Positions 2-19,100 of a stretch of DNA of 20,000 nucleotides are shown here, piece by piece. Both the position numbers and the translations under genes were made by a program. Below the pieces are notes generated by a model, which was not told the origin of the DNA, did no database searches, and saw nothing but the letters and a program-made list of their open reading frames with translations. Position 1 is the stretch's first letter, and each line of letters begins with the position of its first letter. This stretch comes from Deltaproteobacteria bacterium (GTDB lineage Bacteria; JAGRBM01; JAHCIT01): assembly GCA_026129095.1 (NCBI GenBank), contig JAHCIT010000006.1:44235-64234 (forward strand), written 5' to 3'.

Positions 2-1135
2 GATGACCGTATTTGCCGGATCAGGGAACGAATTCCCCGTTGCCGCGCCGATAGCGACGTAAATACCCTGTGCCGGAGTGGTTACCATCCCCCGGAACAG
101 GTTTCCGGCAATCAGCGTGCCCGCAGTATTCGCACTGTTCATGTATATATGGTTGCCAGGGCTGTGGCCGCCGATAAACGTGTTGCCGACGATCTTGGTC
201 AGTTCACCATCGTTCCATACGCCGTTCCCATCATGATCCGTCAGGTCAATACGGTTTCGGCGGATGACCGTATTGCTGGCGGATCCCGTCAGGAAAATTC
301 CGGTATCGTTGTACACCAGGTGATTATCCTCGATAACCGTATTTTCATCCTGGATCAGGAACCCGTTCTGGCAGCCAGAAACGGTGTTCCGGGCGAAACG
401 GACATCATTCACGGAAAATTCCGTCCGGAAGCCCTGCACGTTCGTGGACCCCATGCAGGTTACCGAATTGCCGGTGATATTCAGGGAACCGGGCATCTCC
501 ACCACCCGGACACCCATCGAGGTGCTGAAGGGATCGTACATCGTGATCCGGTTGTTCTCGATACGGACATCGCCGGTCATGGCTTCCTGCCTGATAACCC
601 CGCCGCTTCCGTCACGAACAGCGATATTGTTGTCCCGGACCTGCATCAGCCCATCGCCAGCAACATATACAATTCCGTCGCCGCGGAAGTTTGCGCTGAC
701 CCGGTTGCCATAAAAGTCGGTATTCGCGGATCCGAGCCAGATCGCCGGAGAAGTGCCCGACACCGGGACATTGAACCGGAAACTGTTGCCGTGGATATCC
801 ACGCCACTCGCCTGGCCACCAATATACACGACGATCAGGTTCCACGACGAAACGGCATCCAGTTCGATCCCGCGTATGGTGATATGCGGTGCGCCCGATA
901 CCGGCTCTATGTACAGAGCATTGAAGGCACTGTCAGTCTTGGATATCTGTAGCTGGCCCATTCCATCCAGCGTGAAATCATCTTCGTCGTTATAAGACGC
1001 GGTAACCGCGAGCACCACCTGCGAGACCGCCCCCGGCCGGACGGTCAGCGGCCCGGAAATCAGGCCAGGCAGTGTCTCCATGCCGAACCGCAACGTACCG
1101 GGACTGGTATCACCGCCACCGGACTGGATCGCGTA
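2..1135 (-). other. Domain: right-handed parallel beta-helix (PbH1/pectin-lyase-like fold), truncated by the window edge
   Basis: An N-cap-like segment GGGDTSPGTLRFGM is followed by ~22-25-aa coils with an Asn ladder: VDIHGNSF, TDFYGNRV, MQVRDNNI, VRIENNRI, LNITGNSV, VRFARNTV, TVIEDNHL, TVIRRNRI, TKIVGNTF, TLIAGNLF. Confidence 0.85.
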
Positions 1136-4100
1136 GCCGCTCACATCCAGGCTTAATTCATAGTCCGAGGGGGCAAAGCTGTTCCCCGGCGGAATCTGGT
1201 AGTACAGCGTGAGCGTGTAGTCCTGGTTGTCGTGGGGAACCTGGACGGTCCAGTTCCCATTCGCCTGGTCACCCGGCCCCGGAATATCCAGGATCATCCC
1301 CTCGGTGCTGTCCACGAGCTTCACGCCAACCGAGCCGGGTTCAAGCAACTGGACGTTAAGCTTCACCACCTGTCCGGCCCTGAGGCCCTGCAGGTAGAAG
1401 GTGTCTATATCGCCCCTGGCATCGAACCGGCCCGTGTATTGGGCGACCGAATCGCCAGTCGTATCCAGATTGACGACGGCACCGATGTTGTCGCCGAACG
1501 GCTCGTTGAAAATCCAGGGATCGAGCGGATCGGGATCAAGACCCTGGCACCAGGGCGTGTTGACCGGACCGTCGCACTGTCCGTCGCCGTCGCTGTCTGA
1601 CAGCGCCGGATCGGTGTAGTGCACGAACCCGGAAACAGCAGGTGGGGTGGCTGCTTTCAGTGCAGCCCCCATTTCGCCCGGATTGTCACCGCGGTGCTGC
1701 CAGTCGCCCACACCCAGCTGACCCTGGTTATTCATTCCCCAACACTTCACACGACCGTCCCGCAGTATCCCACAGCTGGTAACACCTCCTGTGGACACCA
1801 TGACCACCTCGCCATCCAGATCCACGTAGGGAAGGTTATCACCCATCTCGCCCGGACTATCGCCCCGGTTCTGTGTATCACCGATTCCGAGCTGCCCGAA
1901 GTGATTGCGGCCCCAGCATTTCACCTTGCCGTTGTCGAGGAGCGCACAGGTATGGGCACTAATTCCACTGGCGGAGATGTGGCGGGCGCGCCGGCCGGTA
2001 CCGAAATCAACATACGGCAGGCCGTCGCCCATCTCCCCGGCGTTATCACCCCGGTCATTCGTGTCGCCCTGCCCGCTGATTCCGTATGCATTGTAGCCCC
2101 AGCACTTGACCCCGCCATTATCCAGAAGCGCACAGGTATGGCCCCCACCCGCAACAATCTGAACCGCCGTCCGGCCGGTGCCGAGGTTCACAACCGGAAG
2201 ATTGTCACCCATCTCGCCGGGTCCGTCACCGCGGGAAACTCCATCTTCATAGCCCAGACGGCCCTGCATGCCGAATCCCCAGCACTTCACCGACCCATCG
2301 TCGAGAATCGCGCACGTGTGATTGTTACCCGCCGAAACCTGAACGGCGGTCCGCCCTGTCCCCAGATCAACGAATGGCAGGTTGTCACCCATCTCGCCGC
2401 CGTTGTCACCCCGATTGTTGACGTCACCCAGTCCGAGCTCGCCGGAAGAATTTATTCCCCAGCACTTCACCTGGCCACTCGCCAGGATCGCGCAGGTATG
2501 AGAACTCCCCGCATCAATGAACGTGGCCGACTGGCCTGTACCCAGGTTCGTAACCGGAAGGTTATTGCTCATCTCGCCAGGACCGTCACCCATGTGGTTG
2601 GTCGTGCCCTGCCCCAGTTCGCCACTGGTATTCCGGCCCCAGCACTTGACGCTGCCGCCCGGCCTGATGGCGCAATTATGATACCCACCGGCCGTCACCA
2701 TCTCCGATGTCGCACCGGAACCCAACAGCACGTTCGGCAGTGACGACATTTCCCCTGGGTCGTCACCACGCGGTGTGGTATCACCGTAACCGAGCTGGCC
2801 GTAAAGATTACCGCCCCAGCACCACAGGGCACCGGGCCAGTCGCTCCGGTCAGTCTCGCGGGCACAGACGTGCTCGGCTCCAATGGAAATCATCTTGCTT
2901 TCACGGAAGTCGTTTTCGGCTCCGGCGCAGGCGCCCACAGCCACGTACCCGTCGCACAGGCCGTCGCCGTCGCTGTCCGCCAGCGCCGGGTCGGACCGCC
3001 GCGAGAACTGGGCTTCACCCAGCATGACGACCAGTTCGTTGTACATCCAGTTGGCGAGCGCGAGGTCTGGCACGCCGTCGCCATTGAAGTCGGCAACGGA
3101 CACCCGGTCGAAATCATAGGAGGCCAGCTCATACTGGCGCGGGGAGATGTGGTAGTTGCCGTTCGGCAGGCCATAGGCCCCGCCCTGCTCATCCACATGA
3201 CCGTAGAACACCTGCATTCTGGTTTCGCTGCTTCCACCCGGAATAATGATGTCCAGTGCGCCGTTCTGGTCGAGATCGGCCATGGTGAACCAGGAGGGCG
3301 TCACGGCCGGGTTCAGGTCGAGATCCTGGAATCCGGTGTTGGCGAACTCGAGGGTGCCCCGGCCATTGATACCGCCCTGCATCCGTGTCTGCACCTTCTG
3401 GGAGTCGCGCATGAGACTCACGAGGTCCGGGACGAGGTCGGCATTGATGTCGGCCATCATCACATCGGCCAGCTCGTCGCTCACCGGGCGCGACTGCAGC
3501 GCGCCGAATGAATTACCCGGCTGTCCGGTACCGGCACTGCAGCCGGACACCGGCTGGACCGCGCCGCAAAGCGGCAGGGTATGGACATATCCGCTCTCGG
3601 TTTCGGGGAAGTAGATATCCTTGAGTCCGTCCCGGTTCACGTCCGCAACATACGCGAAGCCGAGCGGCTCGAAACCGCCATTATCATAGGGGGTAACCGG
3701 CGATCCCGGCCAGGAATTGAACCCCGTCGCCGTGAAGGTGCGGATCTGGCCAAGCACTCCGTAGGCCATCATGATATCCAGGTTGCTGTCGCCGTTCAGG
3801 TCAATGACACCGCCGCTCGTGATCCCGCCAGCTCCCGTGCTGTTGTGCAGCACCCCCGCCTCGAACTGCCCAACGCCCAGACAACCAGCCAATGGGCTGC
3901 TGATACCCGCGCACCCATAGAACACCTGGAACTGGCCCGCCTGGTAGAACACGACCAGATCCATGAAGCCGTCGCGGTTCATGTCGGCCATCTCGATTCC
4001 GGCCGTTGTGGATGAACCCAGGGTATATTGCGCCGGACCCGTAAACTGGCCCGTGCCATCACCGCTGTAGACGAGCATGACGTTGTTGCCGCCCGCCACC

Positions 4101-7100
4101 GCGATATCCTGCCGGCCGTCCAGATTGAAATCGCCCGTGGCCATGTATCTCGGACCGCTCAGGGCGTGGGTGCCCGTGTTGTACTGCGCGGCCATTTCGA
4201 ATTTCCCGTCCAGATTGCGGCGCACGACCTCTCCGCCGTCCGGCAACCCGTCGCCATCGGTGTCCCAAAGGTGCGGATTGATGCCGTAGTGAACCTCCCA
4301 CCCGTCCGGCAGGCCATCGCTGTCAGTATCAGACAGCGCGGGATCGGTACCTACATCGCGGAAGTTTTCCATCGTGCCGGTATTGGTCTCGGCGAAGTCG
4401 GGGTACTGGTCGCCGTCGCTGTCCGGCCCGCCGATCACAAGCCCGATCGAGGTGAACCCGGCCATTTCATCCGCCTTCACCCAGGTGAACGCCATCGTCG
4501 GACGCCCGGCCGCATCGACGGCGACGCTCACGCCATTGCCGTATTGCCAGATATTGGGGCTCACCGACTTGGTAAGCGCCCAGGTAAACCCGCCGTCATA
4601 GCTCCGGGCGAGATAGAAATCGGCTTCCTTTTCGTCCGGCACGTTTGAACGGCGCTGCTCCCAGCCGAGATAGAGCTGGTTGCGCGGTCCTACGGCAACG
4701 GAGGGGCCCCGGCTCTCGGTCTCAAGGGAGGGGGTCACCTCAATCTGGCCGGTAAAGGTGCTGCTGCATTCGTCACCAACTACCGCAAACCAGACCTCCG
4801 GTCCGTTGACGCCCACCCTGAGCCAGACAACGGCCCATCCGCCACCATTATGGAGGGCCGCAATCCTGGGTGAGGTGTGATTGGAAGCAGGATCAGCGGA
4901 AACGTCGAAAGCCGCAGTGTAGCCGCTTCCGCCATCAGTTGAGCAGGCGATTTCCACCTGGCCGTATCCGCCATAGTTGGCAACATACACAACCGCGATA
5001 TCGCCGTTTTCCGCAACAGCGATATCCGGCTGCGAGGCAGTTGACCCGCCCGAGAACCAGTAAGGCCAGCCGGTCGTAGTGAAAGACTGCCCGCGGTTAT
5101 TCGATACCTGGACCTGTATGGCATCATCGGTCCCCGTGTCGTCCACTTCGTGGAAAGCCACGGCGACGCGTGCGCCACTGGCAGCTACCGCCGGAGTATG
5201 GCCGCTCCATCCGCCCGAGTGGTTGGTCAGGTTCAGGGAGTCGAACGACTGGGCGCCATTCTGCGAGCGCAGGAACATGATGTCGTTGTCCCACGGAGAA
5301 GTGGGAGAAAGCGCCGTAAAGACCGCGTAGTAGTCGTTCAGGAAACGCGATGTGGCGGCGGCGACATCAATCTCGCCATCGGGATCATGGGAACCAACCA
5401 CATTGGCACTGAACACCACGCCGCCATTGAGCGAACGGCGGACCTGGGTCTCCGCGGGCTGCGGCACACCGGCCAGGACTTCGTGGCGCGAGAAGGCAAC
5501 GACCGGGACATCCTCTGACCTGGGCAGCCAGCGGATCACCGGATTAGTGACAACCACATTCCCGAAATACTCCAGGCTCTGCGGGCTGGCCGTCAGCGAG
5601 TAGCCGGGGAGCAACGGATCCATTCCTTCGCCAGGCAGTTCCGCCCCGTCGGGCACCAGATCCCGGTCCGAGTCCGGGTCCGTTGGGTCGGTAAAGGTTA
5701 TGTACAGCTCGTCAGAATCACTTAGCCAGTCACCATCGGTATCCGGGTTCAGCGGGTCCGTGTCCCAGCCGGATTCCGTGCCGGAGCAGATTCCGGTAAC
5801 TACCGAGCCGTCACACAGGAAGTCACCATCCGTATCCTCGTTGTTCGGATCGCTGGAGTAGCCAAGACCCACGGTATTCGCCGGGATGATCTTCACTCCC
5901 GAAGTGTCTGCGACGACCAGGTCGGCGGCTCCGTCCCCGTTGAAGTCCGCGAGCACGAAGCTCCGCGAATCGGAAGTCCCCGACAATGCATTATCGGAAA
6001 CGAGTTCACCCGTCGGACGGCCAAAGATACCTTCTCCTCTGAATATCTCGGCCTCGAATGCCACACGCCCCACAATGACGTCGGGGCGGCCATCGCCGCT
6101 CAGGTCTCCAGCGAAGATTCCCGTTGTTTCTGTAAGAGTGGGGGCCGTCCCAAGCTGGGCAACCCGCGCAAACCGTACCGGCACTCCCGGTCCTGACCCA
6201 CCCGGCTGGTAGCCAGCGGCGACGAAATGGTTGACGCCAATCTGGCCGGTGAAGAGGACGTCCGGACGGTCATTCCCGTCAAGACCGGCCACCCTGACAT
6301 GGCCATGCAACGTCATTGGCGGGTTGAAACTCGCCCCTTCCAGGAGAGTCTGGACCGGACCGAACTGCCCGGAACTGTCATTCGCAACCCACTGGAGCCT
6401 GTTCGTGCTGCCATTAACAAGCAGGATATCCTCATACCCGCCATCGTCATTCAGATCAGCCACGGCCAGCCCCAACACCTGGTCTGACAGCGAAACCGTA
6501 TGAACCGGAACCGGATCAAAGCAGTCATTCCCCGAGAAATCATAACCCAGAACAGTGATGCCAGATGCCGACGAATGAGCCACTGCGAGGCCCGGATATC
6601 CCGAAACATCAAGCTGGGAGAACAGCGCAATGTGCACCACATTATCCGGGAGGGAATTGGTTCGCATCGTTCCGAATTCGCCCTGCACGTCCGAGCTTCC
6701 CGGCCAGCACCGGAGCGTGTTCGAGTTTGTGTCGTTGACGACGATATCTTTCACAAAGTCGCCATCAATATCGGCCAGTATCATCTGGGTCGAATTCGGA
6801 CCGGCATCCATGCTGTATCCTTCAGCAAAGCCGCCGCCGGACTGCCCAAGCATCACCTGGATACGGTTGTTGGGCGTATCGTCTTCGAGCAGGACCAGAT
6901 CCAGCCGTCCGTCGGAGTCAACGTCGGTAACAGCCACGGCGTAGACATAACCGGGCCGGAAGATATCTTCCGTCTGGCCCGTATCGAACGTGCCGTCTGG
7001 CCGTCCCACGGCCTCCTCACCGTCGTAGAGGCCGTCTGCATCGGTATCCGGCTCGAAGGGATTGGTACCGGCGTTGCTGGGGCTGACCCAGGTTCCGGTC

Positions 7101-10100
7101 ATCGTCTCCGCGCCATCCTTAAGGCCGTCAAAGTCGGTGTCAGGATTGTTCGGATCGGTGCCGGTATCGAACGGTCCGTTGTAAACGCTCGTATTGGTTT
7201 CGACGCTATCCAGGAGTCCGTCCCCGTCCGAATCGGGGTTGAGCGGGTCGGTCCCCATGATGTTTTCCATATGGTCGGAAAGACCGTCGCCATCGGTATC
7301 CGGATTCCACGGATTCGTTCCATTCTGTATTTCAACGCCGTCCGGAACGGTATCGCCGTCACTGTCGCTACTGGTCGGATCGGTACCGAAAGCGATCTCC
7401 GCACTGTCGCTGAGTCCATCGCCATCCGTATCGGCATTGAGCGGGTCGGTCGTGGGAAGGATCGTTCCCACCACCGCGTAACTCGATCCGTCCGCATTTT
7501 CGCTTTCCCATGCAAGGAAGCGGCGGCCTGAACTGGACACCGCCACGGCCGGATTGTTCTGGGCCCCGGCAGTGATCTGGTTCACCTGGTATTGCGGTCC
7601 GTATGCGGTACCGGCACTGTCAAACTCGCGGGCGAAAATCCCGTAGAAATCGCCGTCGAGTCCGCCCAAATCCGCCCACAGCACGATGATCTCGTCGTCC
7701 CGGTTCATCCCGATGGCAGGCACACGCTGGAAATCGAACTCCTCGTTGTTCACGGCGAAATCCGGACTCATCGGAGTGATGCTGTCATCGAATATCCGGG
7801 CGCGGATGCCGAGGCTGGCTGCGTCGGGGCTTGTCCAGGCAACGGCAAAGTTACCCGCCGCGTTCATCGCAATGGCCGGATCATCCTGGGTCCCACCCGT
7901 GACCGAGTTGACCAAGTACATGTCCGTGTCGATCGCGCTTGACGGCAGCATCGTGCTGAGACGGATGTCGGTATCAGAGCCGTTATGCGACGAGTAGACG
8001 ATGAAGCTCAATCCCCATGAATCGACAGCCACATCCGGCTTGGTCTGCGCATTGGCAATTGTCCCGTGAACAACCACTTCGCCGGTCAATGGCGTGCCGT
8101 TCCGGTCAAACCGGCGGGCCACGACGTCCCACCCGCTGCCGCAGGTATTTTCACACTGCCACGCGACAGTGAAGTCGCCCGTCTGCCGGTGGACACCAAC
8201 CGAGGGGGCGCTCTGGTCGCCCGCAGTGGTCGCATTGACCTGGATTTCTCCGGTCTTTGGGGAACCATCGCTACCGAATACCCGCGCATAGATTCCACCC
8301 AGGTCGCCGTCCTGTCCGTCGCTCATCCATACGACGACGAAATCCCCGTCGCCCGAAACAGCCACGTCCGGCTGGCTCTGGGTACCAGCGGACGTCGAAT
8401 TGACGACGATTTCACCGCCCGTCTTCTCTCCGCTGTGCACAAGAAGCTGGGCACGGATGTCGGTCCCATCAACCCACGCGGCCACCCAGTTGCCATTCGG
8501 GCTTGCCGCCACGGACGCCAGTCCCTGGAAGCCTGCCGTCATTGTATTCACGACAAACTGCGTGCTGCCCTCTACGCCGGTGCATACCCCTGTCACCCAG
8601 GTGCCGTCACACAGACCATCGCCATCGGTGTCGGGGTTCAGCGGATCGGTACCGAGCGCCGTTTCGCTACCCGTGCAGATACCAACGACATTCAGGCCGT
8701 CGCACAGCCGGTCCCCGTCGGTATCGATATCAACGGGATTGGTCATGCGTGTCTGGCGCACGAAGACGCCGTTTCCGTCTCCGTCACGGCCGGTGGTGTC
8801 CTCAAAAACGATCACCCAGTCGCCGCCAGCAAGGTAACCAGCCTTTACCATGTCACCGGAGGCACTCGGCTGCATCATCAGGAATTCCGGGCCCACGGAC
8901 GTTCCGTTCCACTGGTAACGCTGCCCGTAAACCCTGAACATTCCGCTTCCGTCCTGGTCCCAGCTGGCCCAGGAAATCAGATAGTCCCCGCTGTTATGCT
9001 CGACAGAAACAGATGGCCGGGTCTGGTCGTACAGCGTATAGGAGTTGACCTGGTACTCACCGGCGTACGGCGAACCGTTCATGTCGAACCGGCGGGCAAA
9101 GACGCCGCTGTTCGATCCGTCCTGGTTGCCACTCGCCCAGGCAACGACAAAATCCCCCGATACTGATGTCGCCGAAATGGACGGATAGTTCTGGATATCC
9201 GCGGTGGTGGTGTTGGCCGTCAGTTCGGCGAATGCCTCGTTATTGGGCGCACTGAACCCGCGGACCCGGATATCCAGCGCATCGCCAGAATCATCCTCGA
9301 AGGCAATCGCCACCCGGCCCAGCCCGAGGGAAGCGATTGCAGGGCGCCCCTGGTTTCCGGCCGTCACGCTGTTCACCTGGAACACCGGCGCAAAAGTTGT
9401 CTGCGACGGATAGGGCTGCCAGTACCGGGCGTAAATATCAGACCCTGTATCGCATCCGTCACAGCGCCAGGCGAGTACGAACTGGCCCGTCACGCTGGTT
9501 GTTGCAATGGCCGGCTGGTAACGGCTGTTTCCGTCTGGACCTACCGCCTCGACATCGTTATCAACCGGGTTGCCAGCGGCATCAAAGCGGCGGAGCCGGA
9601 TCTGGTAAGTCCCGCTCCGGCTGTCGCTCCAGGCAACAACAAACCGGCCACTGTCGTCGACGGCTATCGTTGGCTGAATCTGGTCGCCTGTATTGGTCGA
9701 ATTAACAAGGATCTCCGTCGTTACCGGCCGGCCGGCGGAGTCGTACTTACGGGCATAAATGCCGCTCTGGTCACCGTCCGGGCCCGACCAGGCAACGACG
9801 TAACTGCCGTTACGCATGACCGCCAGCGCCGGGGCAAGCTGATGACCGGAAACAGTCTCGGTCGCAATGAAGTCCAGTTGCCGTTCCGTGCCGTTGCAAC
9901 TGCCGGTCATTTCATGCCCGTCGCACAGGCCGTCGCCATCCGTATCGGGATTGTTCGGGTCTGAACCGGGATTGCCCGGACTGATGAAAGCCAGGCTCGC
10001 ATTTTCGGCGCCGTCGAAATACCCGTCACCATCAGTATCCGGGACATTCGGATCCGTTCCGGTCATGACGGCCGAGAAATAGGTTCCGCCGTTATCTTCA

Positions 10101-16100: not shown

Positions 16101-19100
16101 GTGACCTTGATGGATATCCCCTCGGCCACTTCATAACTGATGTCCGTGAAGTCCACGACGCCCGCGGTGGCGATACCGGATGTGGTCCCGGTCAGGTTGC
16201 TGATGCCTGAGTCCAGTTCCAGCAGGACCGTTGCCGTCGAGAAGATGCCGGTCGTGACCGTGTTGCCGTACGCGTCCTGGATCGCCGCGCTGAAACTGTC
16301 CCAGGTGACGCCCGCCGTGATCGGACCCATCTGGCCGGGGGCCGGAGCGACAAACCCGACCTGCGCGGCCGCGCCGTGGGTTATGTTGAACAGGTCCGAG
16401 TCGGCATCGGTCAGGCCCGGCGAGGTCACCCGCAGCCGGTAGCCGGAAGCCACCCTGTCCAGATGGACCTGGTTGAAGACGGCGAGGCCGTTCGTCGCGG
16501 GAACCGGATTTGTCTCGGCTGAAAGCGTCGAGCCGCCCGGGTTGTCTTGTAGAACCAGGGTAATGGCGGGAGCCGGAATACCCGTACCGCCAAGGTCCAC
16601 GGCGGGCAGGTTGTCGCCCATCTCACCGGGCTGGTCGCCGCGATGGGCAGTATCACCGAGGCCCAGCTGGCCATTGGCGTTTGCACCCCAGCATTTCACA
16701 TTGAAATTGTCGAGAATTGCACAGCTGGAGGCCGTATGCGCTGCCAATTTAGTCACTGTCCGGCCCGTGCCGAGGTCCAGGACAGGAAGGCTATCACCCA
16801 TCTCCCCAGGACCGTCACCACGGTCCACCATATCCCCAAGACCAAGCTGGCCATTGGTATTGTAACCCCAGCATTTTGTGGTCACATCATCAAGAACTGC
16901 GCAGGTATGGTAATAGCCCAATGACAGATGGGTAGCCGTTCGGCCGGCACCCAAATTCACGGATGGGAGACTGTCACCCATCTCACCAGGCCCATCACCT
17001 CGATTTGCCGTATCCCCAAGCCCCAGTTGTCCAGAGCTGTTCCACCCCCAGCATTTTACATCTCCGTTGTCGAGTATTGCGCAGGTATGACTTTGACCTG
17101 CCACCAGACTGATCGCAGTCCGGCCTGTGCCGAGAGACACGACCGGCAGATTATCACCCATCTCGCCACCGTTATCGCCCCGATGGGCCGTGTCGCCTAG
17201 ACCCAACTGGCCGTTAGTGTTGTTACCCCAGCACTTGACAGTCTGATTATCGAGAAGTGCGCAGGTATGGTATTGGCCTGCCACCAGACTGATCGCAGTC
17301 CGGCCTGTGCCGAGAACTACAGTGGGGAGGCTATCTCCCATTTCCCCCGGCCCAATTCCGCGATCCACCGTATCTCCGAGACCAAGCTGGCCATTTCCAG
17401 CTTCTCCCCAGCACTTGACAGTCTGATTATCGAGAAGTGCACAGGTATGATAGCTGCCCGCCGCCAGATCCATTGCAGTTCGGCCCGTTCCAAGATCAAC
17501 CGCGGGGAGATTGTCACTCATCTCGCCAGGGCCATCACCTCTGGTCACAAAATCACCGAGTCCCAACTGGCCGAAGCTGTTATTTCCCCAGCATTTAAGG
17601 GCCCCGTTATCGAGTATCGCGCAGGTATGATCGCTACCGGAAGCAAGCTTGATCGCAGTCCGGCCTGTACCTAGAGACACGGTCGGGAGATTATCACCCA
17701 TCTCGCCACCGTTATCGCCCCGGTGGGCCGTGTCGCCCAGACCCAGCTGGCCGTTAGTGTTGTAACCCCAGCACTTGACGTTGCCGTTACTGAGAAGGAC
17801 GCAATAGCGGTGAAAACCCGCCGCCACCTGCACCGGCACCGGCCGGAACGGACCGGTCACGTCGTTCCCGTAGGCGTCCTGAACCTGGGCGCTGACCATC
17901 TGGGTGTCGTCGGCCGTGACCGTGATTGGCTGCTGGACAAAGGCAAGCTGGGCCGGATCGCCTACCGTGATGTCGAACGCGGCGGAGCTCATCGTCCGCG
18001 GACCCTGCTGGGCCTGGAGAACCTTCGAGCCGACAATGGCGATGTTCAGGCTGTCCCCAGGCACCCAGGAGGCAATGCCCGCCGACGGCGCCTTGGTAAC
18101 GGTGCCTGACAGCACACCCGAACCGCTCCAGAGCGACAGGGTGATGTCGGCCACCGCATCCGGGCCGGTCGTGACCGTGTTGCCATAGCCATCACGCACC
18201 TCGACCACCGGCAGGAGCGGCGATCCGGCCTGCGTGGTTACCGGCTGCGTCGTGAAGACGAGCGCCGATGCCGCGCCGTGGGTAATGTCAAAGTAGTCCG
18301 ACGAGGCAGGCGTGAGCGGCGGAGATGAAAGTGCTTCCAGCGCGTATCCGGTAAATGCCTTGTCAATATGGACGCTGGAGAACACCGCTATGCCCGCCGA
18401 AACCGTCACCGGATTTACCGCCACATCCAGCGTGGCCGCGCCGCCGCTCGGATCGATATCGAACCCCAGCGTGATCTCGGTCGCAAAGTCGGTATCCACA
18501 AGGTTGTCATGGAAGTCCCGGACCTCCACTTCCACGCTCTGGCTCTGGTCGGTCGTGCGGTTGCCCGGCTGGGTGACGAACGCCATCCGGTCCGGAACAC
18601 CGGGAGTGATGTCGAAGGGATCGGTTACATCACTTCCGAGACCGGAAGCCGTTGCTTCCAGCGTGTATCCGGAGCCTGTCCTGTTCAGTGCCACCGAGAC
18701 GAAGGTCGCGCTGCCGCCCGTGGCCATCACCGGATTGGCGGACACACTGAGAGTTGAGCCGCCCGGATTGTCGAAGATGGCGAGGGTGATTTCGGTCGTG
18801 TTGTCCGAGGAAGCCAGGTTGCCGTACCCGTCCCGCACCTCGACCGTGAGGGACTGGGAGTTGTCCGTCGAGCGATTAACAGGCTGTGAGAAGAAGACCA
18901 GGTGATCGGCCGCGCCGTGCGTGATATCGAAAGAACCCGATGTCGCGGGCAGCAGCAGCGGCGGCACCGCATCGGCGCGCAGGGTGTAACCCACGCCCGC
19001 CTTATCCAGCCGGACATCAACAAAATCCACCAGACCGGCATCCGCCGTTTCCGGATTGACAATCACCGAGAGCGAGGACGCACCGGGGTTATCCTGGATT

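Follow-up and report, generated by a model that had tools for sequence, protein, structure and literature searches.

Nine beta-propellers on one giant, probably exported bacterial protein, three of them very probably nested in Ig-like stalk repeats

We analyzed 20,000 nucleotides from the genome of a rare, uncultured Deltaproteobacteria bacterium (GenBank assembly GCA_026129095.1, contig JAHCIT010000006.1, positions 44,235 to 64,234; hereafter, the window), all of which lie within one gene for a giant protein of about 9,927-9,938 amino acids (aa), the exact length being set by the choice of start codon. The protein combines a long stalk of immunoglobulin (Ig)-like repeats with nine beta-propellers, and three of these propellers, all of the RCC1 type, are very probably nested within single Ig-like repeats. 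With entry and exit of the chain at a single point of the stalk, a nested propeller would project sideways from the fiber. On balance, we favor the view that this giant fibrillar surface protein is a multivalent, multispecific adhesin.

Three RCC1 propellers interrupt Ig-like repeats at one position

The stalk repeat was modeled with a hidden Markov model (HMM) that was seeded from one 106-residue unit and iterated on the giant protein itself (the stalk self-HMM). It returned 43 matches, comprising 35 intact repeats, 6 half-repeats that make up 3 split repeats, and 2 insignificant hits. With residues of the giant protein numbered from an ATG at codon 49 of the frame (9,927 aa in all; residue 1 of the window is giant residue 2413), 27 intact repeats run uninterrupted from residue 258 to residue 3090, and every propeller lies distal to them. 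The three split repeats with their RCC1 inserts (cassettes 1, 2, and 3) are followed by four, two, and two intact repeats, respectively, so that four and then two repeats separate one cassette from the next. All three are broken at the same profile position (HMM positions 1-46 and 44-106, 1-39 and 45-106, and 1-51 and 45-106) by ~420-430 RCC1 residues. The break point lies just past a conserved D-x-x-G-N-x-V strand, and in a column-by-column alignment the half-repeats on either side of an RCC1 block match the N- and C-terminal halves of 13 intact repeats.

The identity of the inserts is clear from several sources. All four RCC1 blocks of the protein (the three nested ones and a distal fourth) match Pfam WD40_RLD (E 5e-50 to 2e-65; 171-222 bits against a cutoff of 150) and also RCC1_2, which places them in the RCC1-like repeat class (PF00415/PF13540/PF25390). 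A self-HMM of the blade gave 31 real matches out of 32. Every RCC1 propeller contains six complete 61-residue units and a C-terminal partial unit; propellers 1-3 also have an N-terminal partial match, and in propeller 4 the N-terminal part-blade was read by eye. These counts correspond to seven blades with velcro closure. The RCC1 model superposes on UVR8 (Z 52, root mean square deviation [rmsd] 1.9 A, 367 residues), and its fold matches include UVR8, HERC2, and RCC1 (Z 40-52) as well as BLIP-II (Z 25.8). Pairwise identity is 59-68% among the nested propellers and 52-56% between them and the distal copy, and all blades are intact in the three cassettes. A tree of the RCC1 propellers was rejected as a guide to the source of the nested copies: all six inner branches lacked good support, and one of the outgroups had a very long branch.

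Since the phase of the stalk self-HMM was set by an arbitrary seed, a break at about position 45 denotes nesting only if the true domains span positions 1-106. Four independent lines of evidence settle this phase. First, in all four Ig-only lipoprotein paralogs used for the purpose (C12 of the window's own genome, G000, together with G001:C7, G002:C3, and G003:C15 from its relatives), the lipobox Cys is followed seven residues later by the first repeat, which begins at HMM position 7 and leaves no room for a preceding half-domain. Second, the last stalk repeat (HMM positions 1-101) ends at residue 5533 and a Big_1 domain follows it directly, from about residue 5546, leaving no room for a trailing half-domain. 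Third, seven sub-threshold Ig-type Pfam alignments (FlgD_ig x2, Invasin_D3 x2, Glyco_hydro2_C5 x2, and SdrD_B), obtained with pieces cut regardless of phase, place profile position 1 within -2 to +5 of the repeat start. Fourth, we built an AlphaFold2 model of a split Ig repeat with its RCC1 insert and one Ig repeat on each side (743 aa; 7-row alignment; mean predicted local distance difference test score [pLDDT] 80.5; predicted template modeling score [pTM] 0.64). The RCC1 core reached pLDDT values of about 90-96 and the Ig parts 55-80. Of the four stretches below 50 (1-3, 108-110, 636-639, and 647-658), those at 108-110 and 636-639 coincide with repeat borders.

The two halves of a split repeat are also predicted to pack against each other. 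When they were modeled as separate chains, the interaction prediction score from aligned errors (ipSAE) was 0.67 (runs 0.68, 0.65, and 0.67), whereas the best of three controls scored 0.00. The runs gave 120-128 contacts and partner pLDDT values of 84-86, and they shared at least 85% of contacts. The mark used for this test was reached by 58 of 80 solved complexes and by 2 of 110 mismatched pairs, a calibration that holds only roughly here because we supplied our own alignments. The pass may partly reflect likeness, Ig folds being abundant among solved structures.

Two points count against nesting and have to be set beside these results. Two weak Pfam alignments contradict the phase (Big_13, E 0.02; Ig_mannosidase, E 0.11), and the packing test is by itself blind to the difference between a nested and an in-line propeller, so the distinction rests on the phase evidence. 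Taking all the evidence together, we nevertheless hold nesting of the three RCC1 propellers in Ig repeats with high confidence.

The graft point itself is well conserved. At the DNA level, the junction between the Ig N-half and RCC1 is the best-conserved part of the cassettes (window 12718-12883, 14950-15115, and 17821-17986), with 80-88% identity versus 60-74% for the blades, and the N-side half-repeats share 77-87% protein identity versus 59-68% among the nested propellers. This conservation could reflect either constraint on the graft point or gene conversion.

A generic survey for split repeats, run on 120 giant RCC1 proteins and controls, was discarded as non-discriminating. It flagged 100 of 217 RCC1 arrays, but an in-line domain between complete tandem repeats produces an identical pattern, with blade-to-blade matches contributing further hits.

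The nested architecture is not an assembly artifact

A gene this repetitive, in a metagenome-type assembly of 23 contigs (3.67 Mb; the window is C20:44235-64234 of genome G000) and in a region where Logan contigs are fragmented, might be suspected of being a repeat chimera or a decaying pseudogene without function. We regard this as highly improbable. The repeats are too diverged at the DNA level (blades 60-74%, cassette flanks 74-88% identity) for repeat collapse during assembly, and the frame runs for 29.9 kb without a stop. Moreover, both junctions of cassette 1 are bridged by exact contigs from three studies. The N-side junction (~17,830) is crossed by Logan contigs covering 17693-17912 in sequencing runs X1, X3, and X6, and the C-side junction (~16,567) by contigs covering 16470-16616 in the same runs, in both cases with 0 differences. 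Since one of the three studies may be the source sample, we count at least two independent ones. In addition, orthologs of similar size and order are present in two relatives (G001 and G002), and the divergence among the nested cassettes has left every blade intact. The nested architecture is not an assembly artifact.

A search of sequencing runs showed where the sequence occurs. Of 24 listed rows, 20, from 13 studies, hold part of window 16000-18300, and 0.96 of the sampled words are present in two soil runs (one study) and one activated-sludge run (another). Near-identical 16000-18300 sequence was found in runs labeled as soil, activated sludge, biofilm, sludge, and wastewater metagenomes, and the organism or close strains thus appear widespread in such habitats. 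Contig joints that skip 1,199-1,850 nt, with 23-30 letters on the shorter side, were considered as deletion variants and rejected, being what is expected of short contigs between paralogous cassettes.

One open frame with a probable lipoprotein-type N-terminus

In the genome, the minus-strand frame to which the window belongs measures 9,976 codons (29.9 kb) from stop to stop (C20:41686-71616), with no internal stop. Upstream, outside the window, lie ~2,400 residues of plain stalk, and downstream ~850 residues that comprise the remainder of a beta-helix and an orphan domain. Long plus-strand open reading frames (ORFs) overlapping the giant frame are taken to be antisense shadows in DNA of 61% G+C. 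The translation start is likely the GTG at codon 38, which has GGAG ~9 nt upstream and begins an N-terminus with a basic stretch, a hydrophobic stretch, and then 'AAPGC'; the ATG at codon 49 is the alternative. Canonical lipoboxes (FTGC, ITGC, or TTGC) are present in all four of the Ig-only paralogs examined. From these features, the giant protein is probably exported and lipid-anchored.

The scan of eight neighboring ORFs (~4 kb on each side) identified a thiolase, an acyl-CoA dehydrogenase, a GMC oxidoreductase, a B12/radical-SAM enzyme, and a Topo VI-B gene, the others giving no match; these neighbors are housekeeping genes. The Topo VI B-subunit gene lies ~2 kb upstream of the giant gene in this bacterial genome (L002:9267-11105, minus strand; Topo-VIb_trans E 1.6e-58). 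A second giant lipoprotein of the same genome consists only of the same Ig repeat (C12 ~281,900-292,400, minus strand; 3,499-codon frame; lipobox TTGC), and its orthologs measure 5,272 codons in G001, 5,440 in G002, and at least 3,913 in G003.

The stalk gives way to a distal series of propellers on TSP3 linkers

The 106-residue stalk repeat missed every Pfam gathering score, with sub-threshold hits such as FlgD_ig and Invasin_D3 only, and its profile had no significant match among PDB sequences (the best, at E 0.016, is an S-layer protein). Big_1 rises above threshold solely in two non-repeat domains, at residues ~171-231 and ~5546-5638, the latter closing the stalk. From residue 5640 (window 10318), where the first thrombospondin type 3 (TSP3) unit lies, the order of blocks is VN1, VN2, FG-GAP 1, BNR-like, FG-GAP 2, and RCC1 propeller 4, with TSP3 units between them (Table 1).

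TABLE 1 Features of the giant protein encoded in the window, from its N-terminal to its C-terminal side
Feature	Window position	Strand	Evidence
One giant ORF, part (giant residues ~2413-9078)	2..19999	-	Frame of 6,666 codons, open at both ends
Six intact 106-residue Ig-like repeats, last of the 27-repeat run begun upstream of the window	17969..19882	-	Self-HMM E 1e-29 to 1e-43; alignment
Split Ig repeat 1, N-half (HMM 1-46)	17828..17968	-	Self-HMM; alignment; exact contigs across the junction (3 DNA studies, one RNA library)
RCC1 propeller 1, nested, 7 blades	16559..17833	-	Pfam; blade HMM; model pLDDT ~90-96; UVR8 Z 52
Split Ig repeat 1, C-half (HMM 44-106)	16379..16567	-	Self-HMM; alignment; junction bridged by exact contigs (3 DNA studies)
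Four intact Ig-like repeats	15095..16381	-	Self-HMM
Split Ig repeat 2, N-half (HMM 1-39)	14981..15097	-	Self-HMM; alignment
RCC1 propeller 2, nested, 7 blades	13715..14959	-	Pfam; blade HMM
Split Ig repeat 2, C-half (HMM 45-106)	13505..13690	-	Self-HMM; alignment
Two intact Ig-like repeats	12863..13507	-	Self-HMM
Split Ig repeat 3, N-half (HMM 1-51)	12710..12865	-	Self-HMM; alignment
RCC1 propeller 3, nested, 7 blades	11462..12703	-	Pfam; blade HMM
Split Ig repeat 3, C-half (HMM 45-106)	11252..11437	-	Self-HMM; alignment
Two intact Ig-like repeats, end of array	10637..11254	-	Self-HMM
Big_1-type Ig domain closing the Ig stalk (giant residues ~5546-5638)	10316..10639	-	Pfam Big_1 E 3.8e-11 / 5.9e-11
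TSP3 linker 1, Asp-rich, Ca-binding type; last unit a Cys-pair variant	9881..10318	-	Pfam TSP3_bac; self-HMM; sequence
VN propeller 1, 7 blades, CylK-like fold	8741..9880	-	Blade HMM; model; fold comparison
TSP3 linker 2, two Cys-pair units	8564..8740	-	Sequence; self-HMM; pLDDT <50
VN propeller 2, 7 blades, CylK-like fold	7454..8563	-	Blade HMM; profile search; model; fold comparison
TSP3 linker 3	6986..7453	-	Pfam TSP3_bac 35.2 bits (cutoff 25); self-HMM
FG-GAP propeller 1	5861..6985	-	FG-GAP_3 E 1e-27; motifs
TSP3 linker 4	5606..5860	-	Self-HMM
BNR/Asp-box-like propeller, homologous to the VN propellers	4436..5605	-	Asp-boxes; Pfam; profile-profile alignment
TSP3 linker 5	4211..4435	-	Self-HMM
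FG-GAP propeller 2, 7 Ca-loop motifs	3011..4210	-	FG-GAP_3 E 8e-29; motifs
TSP3 Cys-pair unit before RCC1 propeller 4	2906..3010	-	Sequence; self-HMM
RCC1 propeller 4, distal, between TSP3 units, 7 blades	1646..2905	-	Pfam; blade HMM
TSP3 Cys-pair unit after RCC1 propeller 4	1511..1645	-	Sequence; self-HMM
~125-residue segment	1136..1510	-	Zero Pfam matches even at E <=1
Right-handed beta-helix, start; continues past the window, then ~700-residue orphan domain	2..1135	-	Pfam Beta_helix E 2.4e-15, NosD E 1e-11

Pfam TSP3_bac (PF18884) is above threshold in linker 3 and below it in the remaining linkers; with a self-HMM of the TSP3 unit, 14 of 16 matches reached E <=1e-9. Some units are of a Cys-pair variant (D-x-D-G-D-x-x-C-D-G-x4-G-x-C), which occurs immediately before VN1, VN2, and RCC1 propeller 4 and after FG-GAP 1 and RCC1 propeller 4. 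This motif stands beside propellers at window 1511-1645, 2906-3010, 8564-8740, and 9881-9950, and it is also present in archaeal (Poseidoniales-type) giant RCC1 proteins, e.g., P0056. In eukaryotes, TSP3 repeats are disulfide-braced Ca2+ wires rather than rods.

The propellers that we call VN have seven blade-HMM matches each (14 of 18 matches in all) and no matching Pfam family. Their blade consensus is roughly EFxVNTxTTGxQxxPxVAxxxxGxFVVxWxSxxQDGSxxGxxxRRF (window 7454-9880; proteins P0122-P0271). The sole named relative in NCBIfam is the sub-threshold NF053835 'PDIAV motif-containing lipoprotein' (42 bits against a cutoff of 90), and a full-text literature search for 'PDIAV' gave nothing relevant among the papers listed, as judged by title. 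An exhaustive HMMER search with the VN profile found 28,571 cluster representatives at E <=1e-3 and 7,282 at E <=1e-30, and many of these proteins are several thousand residues long, with up to 39 matched stretches. The VN family looks like a candidate for a new curated family.

Fold comparison relied on a model of the two VN propellers and their TSP3 linkers (932 aa; 10-row alignment; mean pLDDT 72.8; pTM 0.47; no Ca2+ in the model), in which VN1 and VN2 form two all-beta domains at pLDDT values of mostly 75-92. Both superpose on the CylK propeller (Z 41.5-42.0, rmsd 2.3-2.6 A, 351-358 residues, 13-18% identity), with YncE, WD40, and integrin alpha forming the next tier at a Z of about 30. 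The link to CylK is structural only, because the VN/TSP3 sequence profile had zero matches among PDB chains at E <=0.01.

The BNR-like block keeps five degenerate Asp-boxes (full motif SxDxGxTW) in all three aligned sequences (the window copy and two orthologs). Pfam BNR matches two of the three (best E 3.8e-5), and BNR_2 matches one ortholog (E 1e-6); the window copy falls below the BNR threshold (E 0.023), and the block had no match among PDB sequences at E <=1. Profile-to-profile comparison of the BNR-like and VN propellers gave a probability of 98% (E 2.6e-13, 384 columns), a score that internal repeats may inflate. At the level of sequence profiles, we therefore treat VN and BNR-like as one superfamily, which gives three propeller superfamilies in the giant protein. 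The two FG-GAP blocks match FG-GAP_3 well above the cutoff of 26.9 bits (E 1e-27 and 8e-29; 96.9 and 100.5 bits), in the FG-GAP/VCBS class (PF13517, PF01839). Block 2 has seven Ca-loop motifs, and block 1 has five clear ones and two gaps, each one blade long.

A preliminary description of the window had anticipated much of this. It read the window as one continuous chain with four RCC1, two FG-GAP, two VN, and one BNR propeller, and the single minus-strand frame together with Pfam, blade HMMs, and motifs recovers all nine. Its count of nearly always seven repeats agrees with the seven blades of the four RCC1 and two VN propellers and the seven motifs of FG-GAP 2, with FG-GAP 1 as described above. 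The stalk switch that it placed at ~10320 coincides with the first TSP3 unit, and its limits of 1616 and 17840 match the end of RCC1 propeller 4 (about 1646) and the start of RCC1 propeller 1 (about 17833). Its four propeller families reduce to three superfamilies, given the homology of BNR-like and VN.

The same description held that eight of the nine propellers interrupt a stalk repeat and that the whole is a continuous rod with lateral discs. Interruption, and with it sideways projection, is supported for the three RCC1 propellers in Ig repeats. The other six propellers lie between TSP3 units and are not shown to be insertions, because short repeats cannot separate a propeller that interrupts from one that lies between; complete TSP3 units flank VN2, for instance (self-HMM positions 9-38 before and 1-38 after it). 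With linker pLDDT values below 50 and a pTM of 0.47, the model does not extend the rod to this region. As far as could be tested by modeling, the TSP3 half behaves as beads on a string, and a rigid rod or contact between flanks is unsupported there. The observation was thus largely right, and its interpretation was right in spirit for three of nine propellers.

Beyond the last propeller, a 'PPC-like' label for residues 8576-8700, suggested by a motif, was dropped, since Pfam is empty there at E <=1. The C-terminal ~770 aa (L001:17687-19999; residues ~9157-9927) had no Pfam, NCBIfam, or usable Atlas match and align over 738 positions with the end of the G002 ortholog at 29% identity. Both proteins end in three hydrophobic residues, with Pro and Arg closing the motif (LLPR and MIPR). 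At the distal tip, this ending may serve as a signal for sorting or processing.

Relatives keep the plan and vary the propellers

The phylum-level group of G000 comprises six genomes in the collection, and the Ig repeat occurs in giant frames in all six; G000, G001, and G002 have at least two giant Ig-repeat ORFs each. The ortholog in G001, a member of the same family, measures at least 9,660 aa, is cut by a contig end, and reads through a run of N (G001:C17:1-40000). It consists of 45 unbroken Ig repeats, TSP3, four VN propellers, FG-GAP, a BNR-like region, FG-GAP, and one RCC1. The ortholog fragment of G002, likewise from that family, has two VN propellers and an unchanged distal order, and in G005, of the same order, RCC1 follows a complete Ig repeat, i.e., it is in-line. 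As judged from these sequences, the plan is conserved, the nested RCC1 cassettes are specific to the G000 copy, and the number of VN propellers differs. Modules have been gained and lost, given that the G001 stalk is uninterrupted and that its VN propellers number four. The preliminary description had asked whether homologs vary the propellers on a kept stalk, and the G001 ortholog, with one RCC1 and no nesting, does so.

The four VN propellers of G001 form two tandem pairs, each of the form TSP3-VN-TSP3-VN, which suggests that they arose by duplication of a two-propeller cassette.

A wider search for giant RCC1 proteins returned 601 proteins (3,666-11,666 aa) at E <=0.001 among 812 candidates. 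None of the 120 giant homologs listed combines the Ig repeat with RCC1: in three the Ig repeat occurs alone, and of the remaining 117, 113 show one or more RCC1 blade matches. The closest giant homologs among the matches listed, from metagenome-assembled genomes (MAGs) labeled Bradymonadia, consist purely of tandem RCC1 arrays and TSP3. The 57 loci found with the junction peptide included none in which RCC1 directly adjoins an Ig half-repeat.

Outside the lineage, the stalk repeat occurs in tandem arrays in MAGs labeled Ignavibacteria, Bryobacteraceae, and Verrucomicrobia. An Ignavibacteria MAG (L071, ORF frame 0, residues 1159-1204) contains a lone Ig N-half (HMM positions 2-47, 16.6 bits) ~770 residues past its array and near the end of the locus. 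This may be another split repeat with a different insert.

Comparison with known giant adhesins and propeller proteins

The closest published parallel is found in the RTX adhesins, in which ligand-binding domains bud from 'split' Ig-like extenders, away from the fiber axis (PMC12077191; bioRxiv 10.1101/2025.09.30.679566). Examples with split extenders are AhLap of Aeromonas hydrophila, FrhA of Vibrio cholerae, and MpIBP (Davies laboratory). The projected domains reported are CBM, vWFA, PBD, beta-roll, and helical, with up to six CBMs per protein (bioRxiv 10.1101/2025.09.30.679566), and isoforms differ in extender number and binding-domain content (PMC12077191; bioRxiv 10.1101/2025.09.30.679566). 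Both kinds of protein share tandem Ig-like extenders followed by a distal ligand-binding region, domains inserted with adjacent termini, and several such domains per protein. A further paper from the Davies laboratory reportedly also treats split-domain display in RTX adhesins.

The differences are nevertheless considerable. No RTX/HemolysinCabind family was found in any piece of the whole giant protein at E <=0.01. The giant protein is without an RTX beta-roll, a type I secretion system (T1SS) signal, a retention module, or adjacent T1SS genes (neighbors within ~4 kb on each side), and has a lipoprotein-type N-terminus instead. Insertion in RTX adhesins is described as following the first strand or preceding the last two, whereas it is mid-domain here (HMM ~45 of 106). 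The domains projected here are 420-residue seven-bladed propellers, and the word 'propeller' does not occur in PMC12077191 or bioRxiv 10.1101/2025.09.30.679566. Furthermore, the ligand-binding region measures ~6,800 residues, two thirds of it on TSP3 linkers rather than Ig extenders. The giant protein is not a member of the RTX adhesin class, and the resemblance is functional only.

Two claims of the preliminary description do not survive this comparison. It had set the protein apart from classic giant adhesins, yet 27 plain repeats followed by all the propellers obey the same logic of proximal extender and distal ligand-binding region. It had also regarded the system as undescribed, and split-domain display is already published for RTX adhesins (PMC12077191; bioRxiv 10.1101/2025.09.30.679566). 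A known family with the same architecture, which it had named as grounds for giving up the idea, thus exists in part, for the display principle. Our full-text literature search, which covered neither subscription journals nor supplementary files, found no split-domain propeller adhesin and no RCC1 inserted in a bacterial Ig-like domain. What remains new is the projected 420-residue seven-bladed propeller, the mid-domain insertion, and the presence of nine propellers in a non-RTX/T1SS protein.

Other comparisons concern single modules. In BapP, the most relevant case among the papers listed for propellers inserted into Ig-like domains, the propeller is terminal and not nested (PMC12153261). The LRP2/megalin and LRP6 ectodomains, which are among the top Foldseek matches to the two-propeller model (9-12% identity), likewise string propellers on an extracellular chain, with short disulfide- and Ca-stabilized modules between them and multi-ligand binding. 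Their blades are six-bladed YWTD with EGF linkers, whereas the bacterial protein has CylK-like/BNR-like, FG-GAP, and RCC1 blades with TSP3, so that the resemblance is one of architecture only. The RCC1-rich giant proteins of bacteria and archaea, which are common, share a length of thousands of residues, an extracellular location, RCC1 together with Ig-like, TSP3, and FG-GAP modules, and a proposed role in adhesion to other cells (10.1101/2023.11.21.568195); nesting and the combination of this Ig repeat with RCC1 are absent among the 120 matches listed. The invasin/intimin Big_1 arrays are also rods of tandem ~100-residue Ig-like domains, and the stalk end scores above the Big_1 threshold while the repeats give sub-threshold Invasin_D3; the giant protein lacks their beta-barrel anchor and C-type lectin tip, and its stalk repeat stays below the Pfam gathering scores. 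CylK itself (PDB 7RON, 7ROO, and 7FH6) has a seven-bladed propeller with a Ca2+ site at each blade junction, and its active site needs an N-terminal beta-roll domain (catalytic Arg105, Tyr473, and Asp440) (PMC8916777). That partner domain is absent from the giant protein by Pfam.

Proposed function and alternatives

From the predicted domains, a multivalent, multispecific binding role is the most reasonable one. After export and lipidation, the 27-repeat run would act as a passive stalk that holds the distal region away from the cell. Ig-like extenders of RTX adhesins are about 4-5 nm long, and at that length 38 Ig repeats would span roughly 0.15-0.2 um. The three RCC1 discs would hang off the side of the stalk, each inserted in the loop after roughly the first two Ig strands, and distal to them a flexible array would comprise the six TSP3-linked propellers together with beta-helix and orphan domain, its TSP3 linkers and its FG-GAP and CylK-type blades being stiffened by Ca2+. 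Each propeller face may bind its own protein or glycan ligand. The RCC1-like BLIP-II binds protein via its top face, integrin FG-GAP propellers act via Ca-dependent loops, and BNR-type propellers bind or cleave glycans. In soil, sludge, and biofilm, the fiber would attach its cell to polymer surfaces or other cells, and gain or loss of cassettes between closely related species would tune what it binds.

Several observations tell against this picture of a lipid-anchored, surface-exposed adhesive fiber. The lipobox 'AAPGC' is non-canonical at positions -2 and -3 (compare [LVI][ASTVI][GAS]C), no secretion or partner genes were found among the eight ORFs within ~4 kb on each side, and the genomic context gives no functional hint. 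All three TSP3 linkers of the two-propeller model have pLDDT values below 50. A contig from a metatranscriptome library (X16, 17775-17928) bridges the N-side junction with 0 differences, and such libraries may contain DNA; 22 of 30 bins of the stretch are uncovered in the RNA library, which makes it uninformative on expression. Finally, the beta-helix, CylK-like, and BNR-like folds include enzymes, and some of the distal region may serve catalysis instead of adhesion.

The last point leads to an alternative that we consider unlikely, namely an attack or degradation fiber in which the beta-helix and perhaps the BNR-like and CylK-like propellers are catalytic while the other propellers target prey or substrate cell walls. 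The Beta_helix/NosD match at the distal end represents a fold that also occurs in polysaccharide lyases and hydrolases; sialidases and GH74-type enzymes belong to the BNR/Asp-box propellers (GH74 is among the fold matches); and CylK, the solved structure closest to the VN fold (Z 42), is an enzyme. All catalytic families are, however, below the Pfam/NCBIfam threshold, including the BNR match of the window; the CylK-type beta-roll domain needed for the active site is absent, and the VN profile has no PDB match at E <=0.01. The closest RCC1 sequences among the matches listed come from MAGs labeled Bradymonadia, Bdellovibrio, Bacteriovoracaceae, and Myxococcales, which are predatory groups, but likeness to the blades of predators says nothing about the lifestyle of the host. 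For many giant bacterial proteins, a giant-gene preprint proposes prey adhesion together with cell-wall digestion (10.1101/2023.11.21.568195).

We give slightly less weight still to a structural component of the envelope, such as an S-layer-like canopy, spacer, or matrix scaffold whose propellers self-associate or form a Ca-dependent lattice. The giant Ig-repeat ORFs in six of six genomes of the group, with at least two each in G000, G001, and G002, suggest a housekeeping function in the envelope; the protein is rich in Ca-binding TSP3 and FG-GAP motifs, and the best PDB match of the stalk repeat is to an S-layer protein, although at E 0.016 it is not significant. The propeller content, however, varies among close relatives (two or four VN, zero or three nested RCC1), which fits diversifying recognition better, and a single-copy 9.9-kaa fiber with a long plain stalk resembles known adhesins.

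Significance of the proposed split-domain display outside the RTX adhesins

Within the favored adhesin reading, we tentatively propose a narrower one, which we would not yet expect to hold in full: that the giant protein is the first of a second, non-RTX, lipoprotein-anchored class of split-domain adhesins in this six-genome phylum-level lineage, with propellers as lateral heads and with cassettes turning over between sister species. If true, split-domain display would not be confined to the RTX/T1SS adhesins of Proteobacteria but would be a convergent and general solution for giant fibers, re-evolved in a deeply separate lineage with a different anchor and larger inserts. The gene family would then be a natural experiment in grafting large domains into Ig repeats without breaking them, and the three diverged cassettes together with a cassette-free ortholog would offer a clean system for a 420-residue graft into a 106-residue beta-sandwich. 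A by-product of the analysis is the very large 'VN' repeat family, which has no Pfam model and whose fold is tied to CylK and, more distantly, to BNR propellers. In addition, the split-repeat signature may be used to find the binding heads of unannotated giant proteins in metagenomes.

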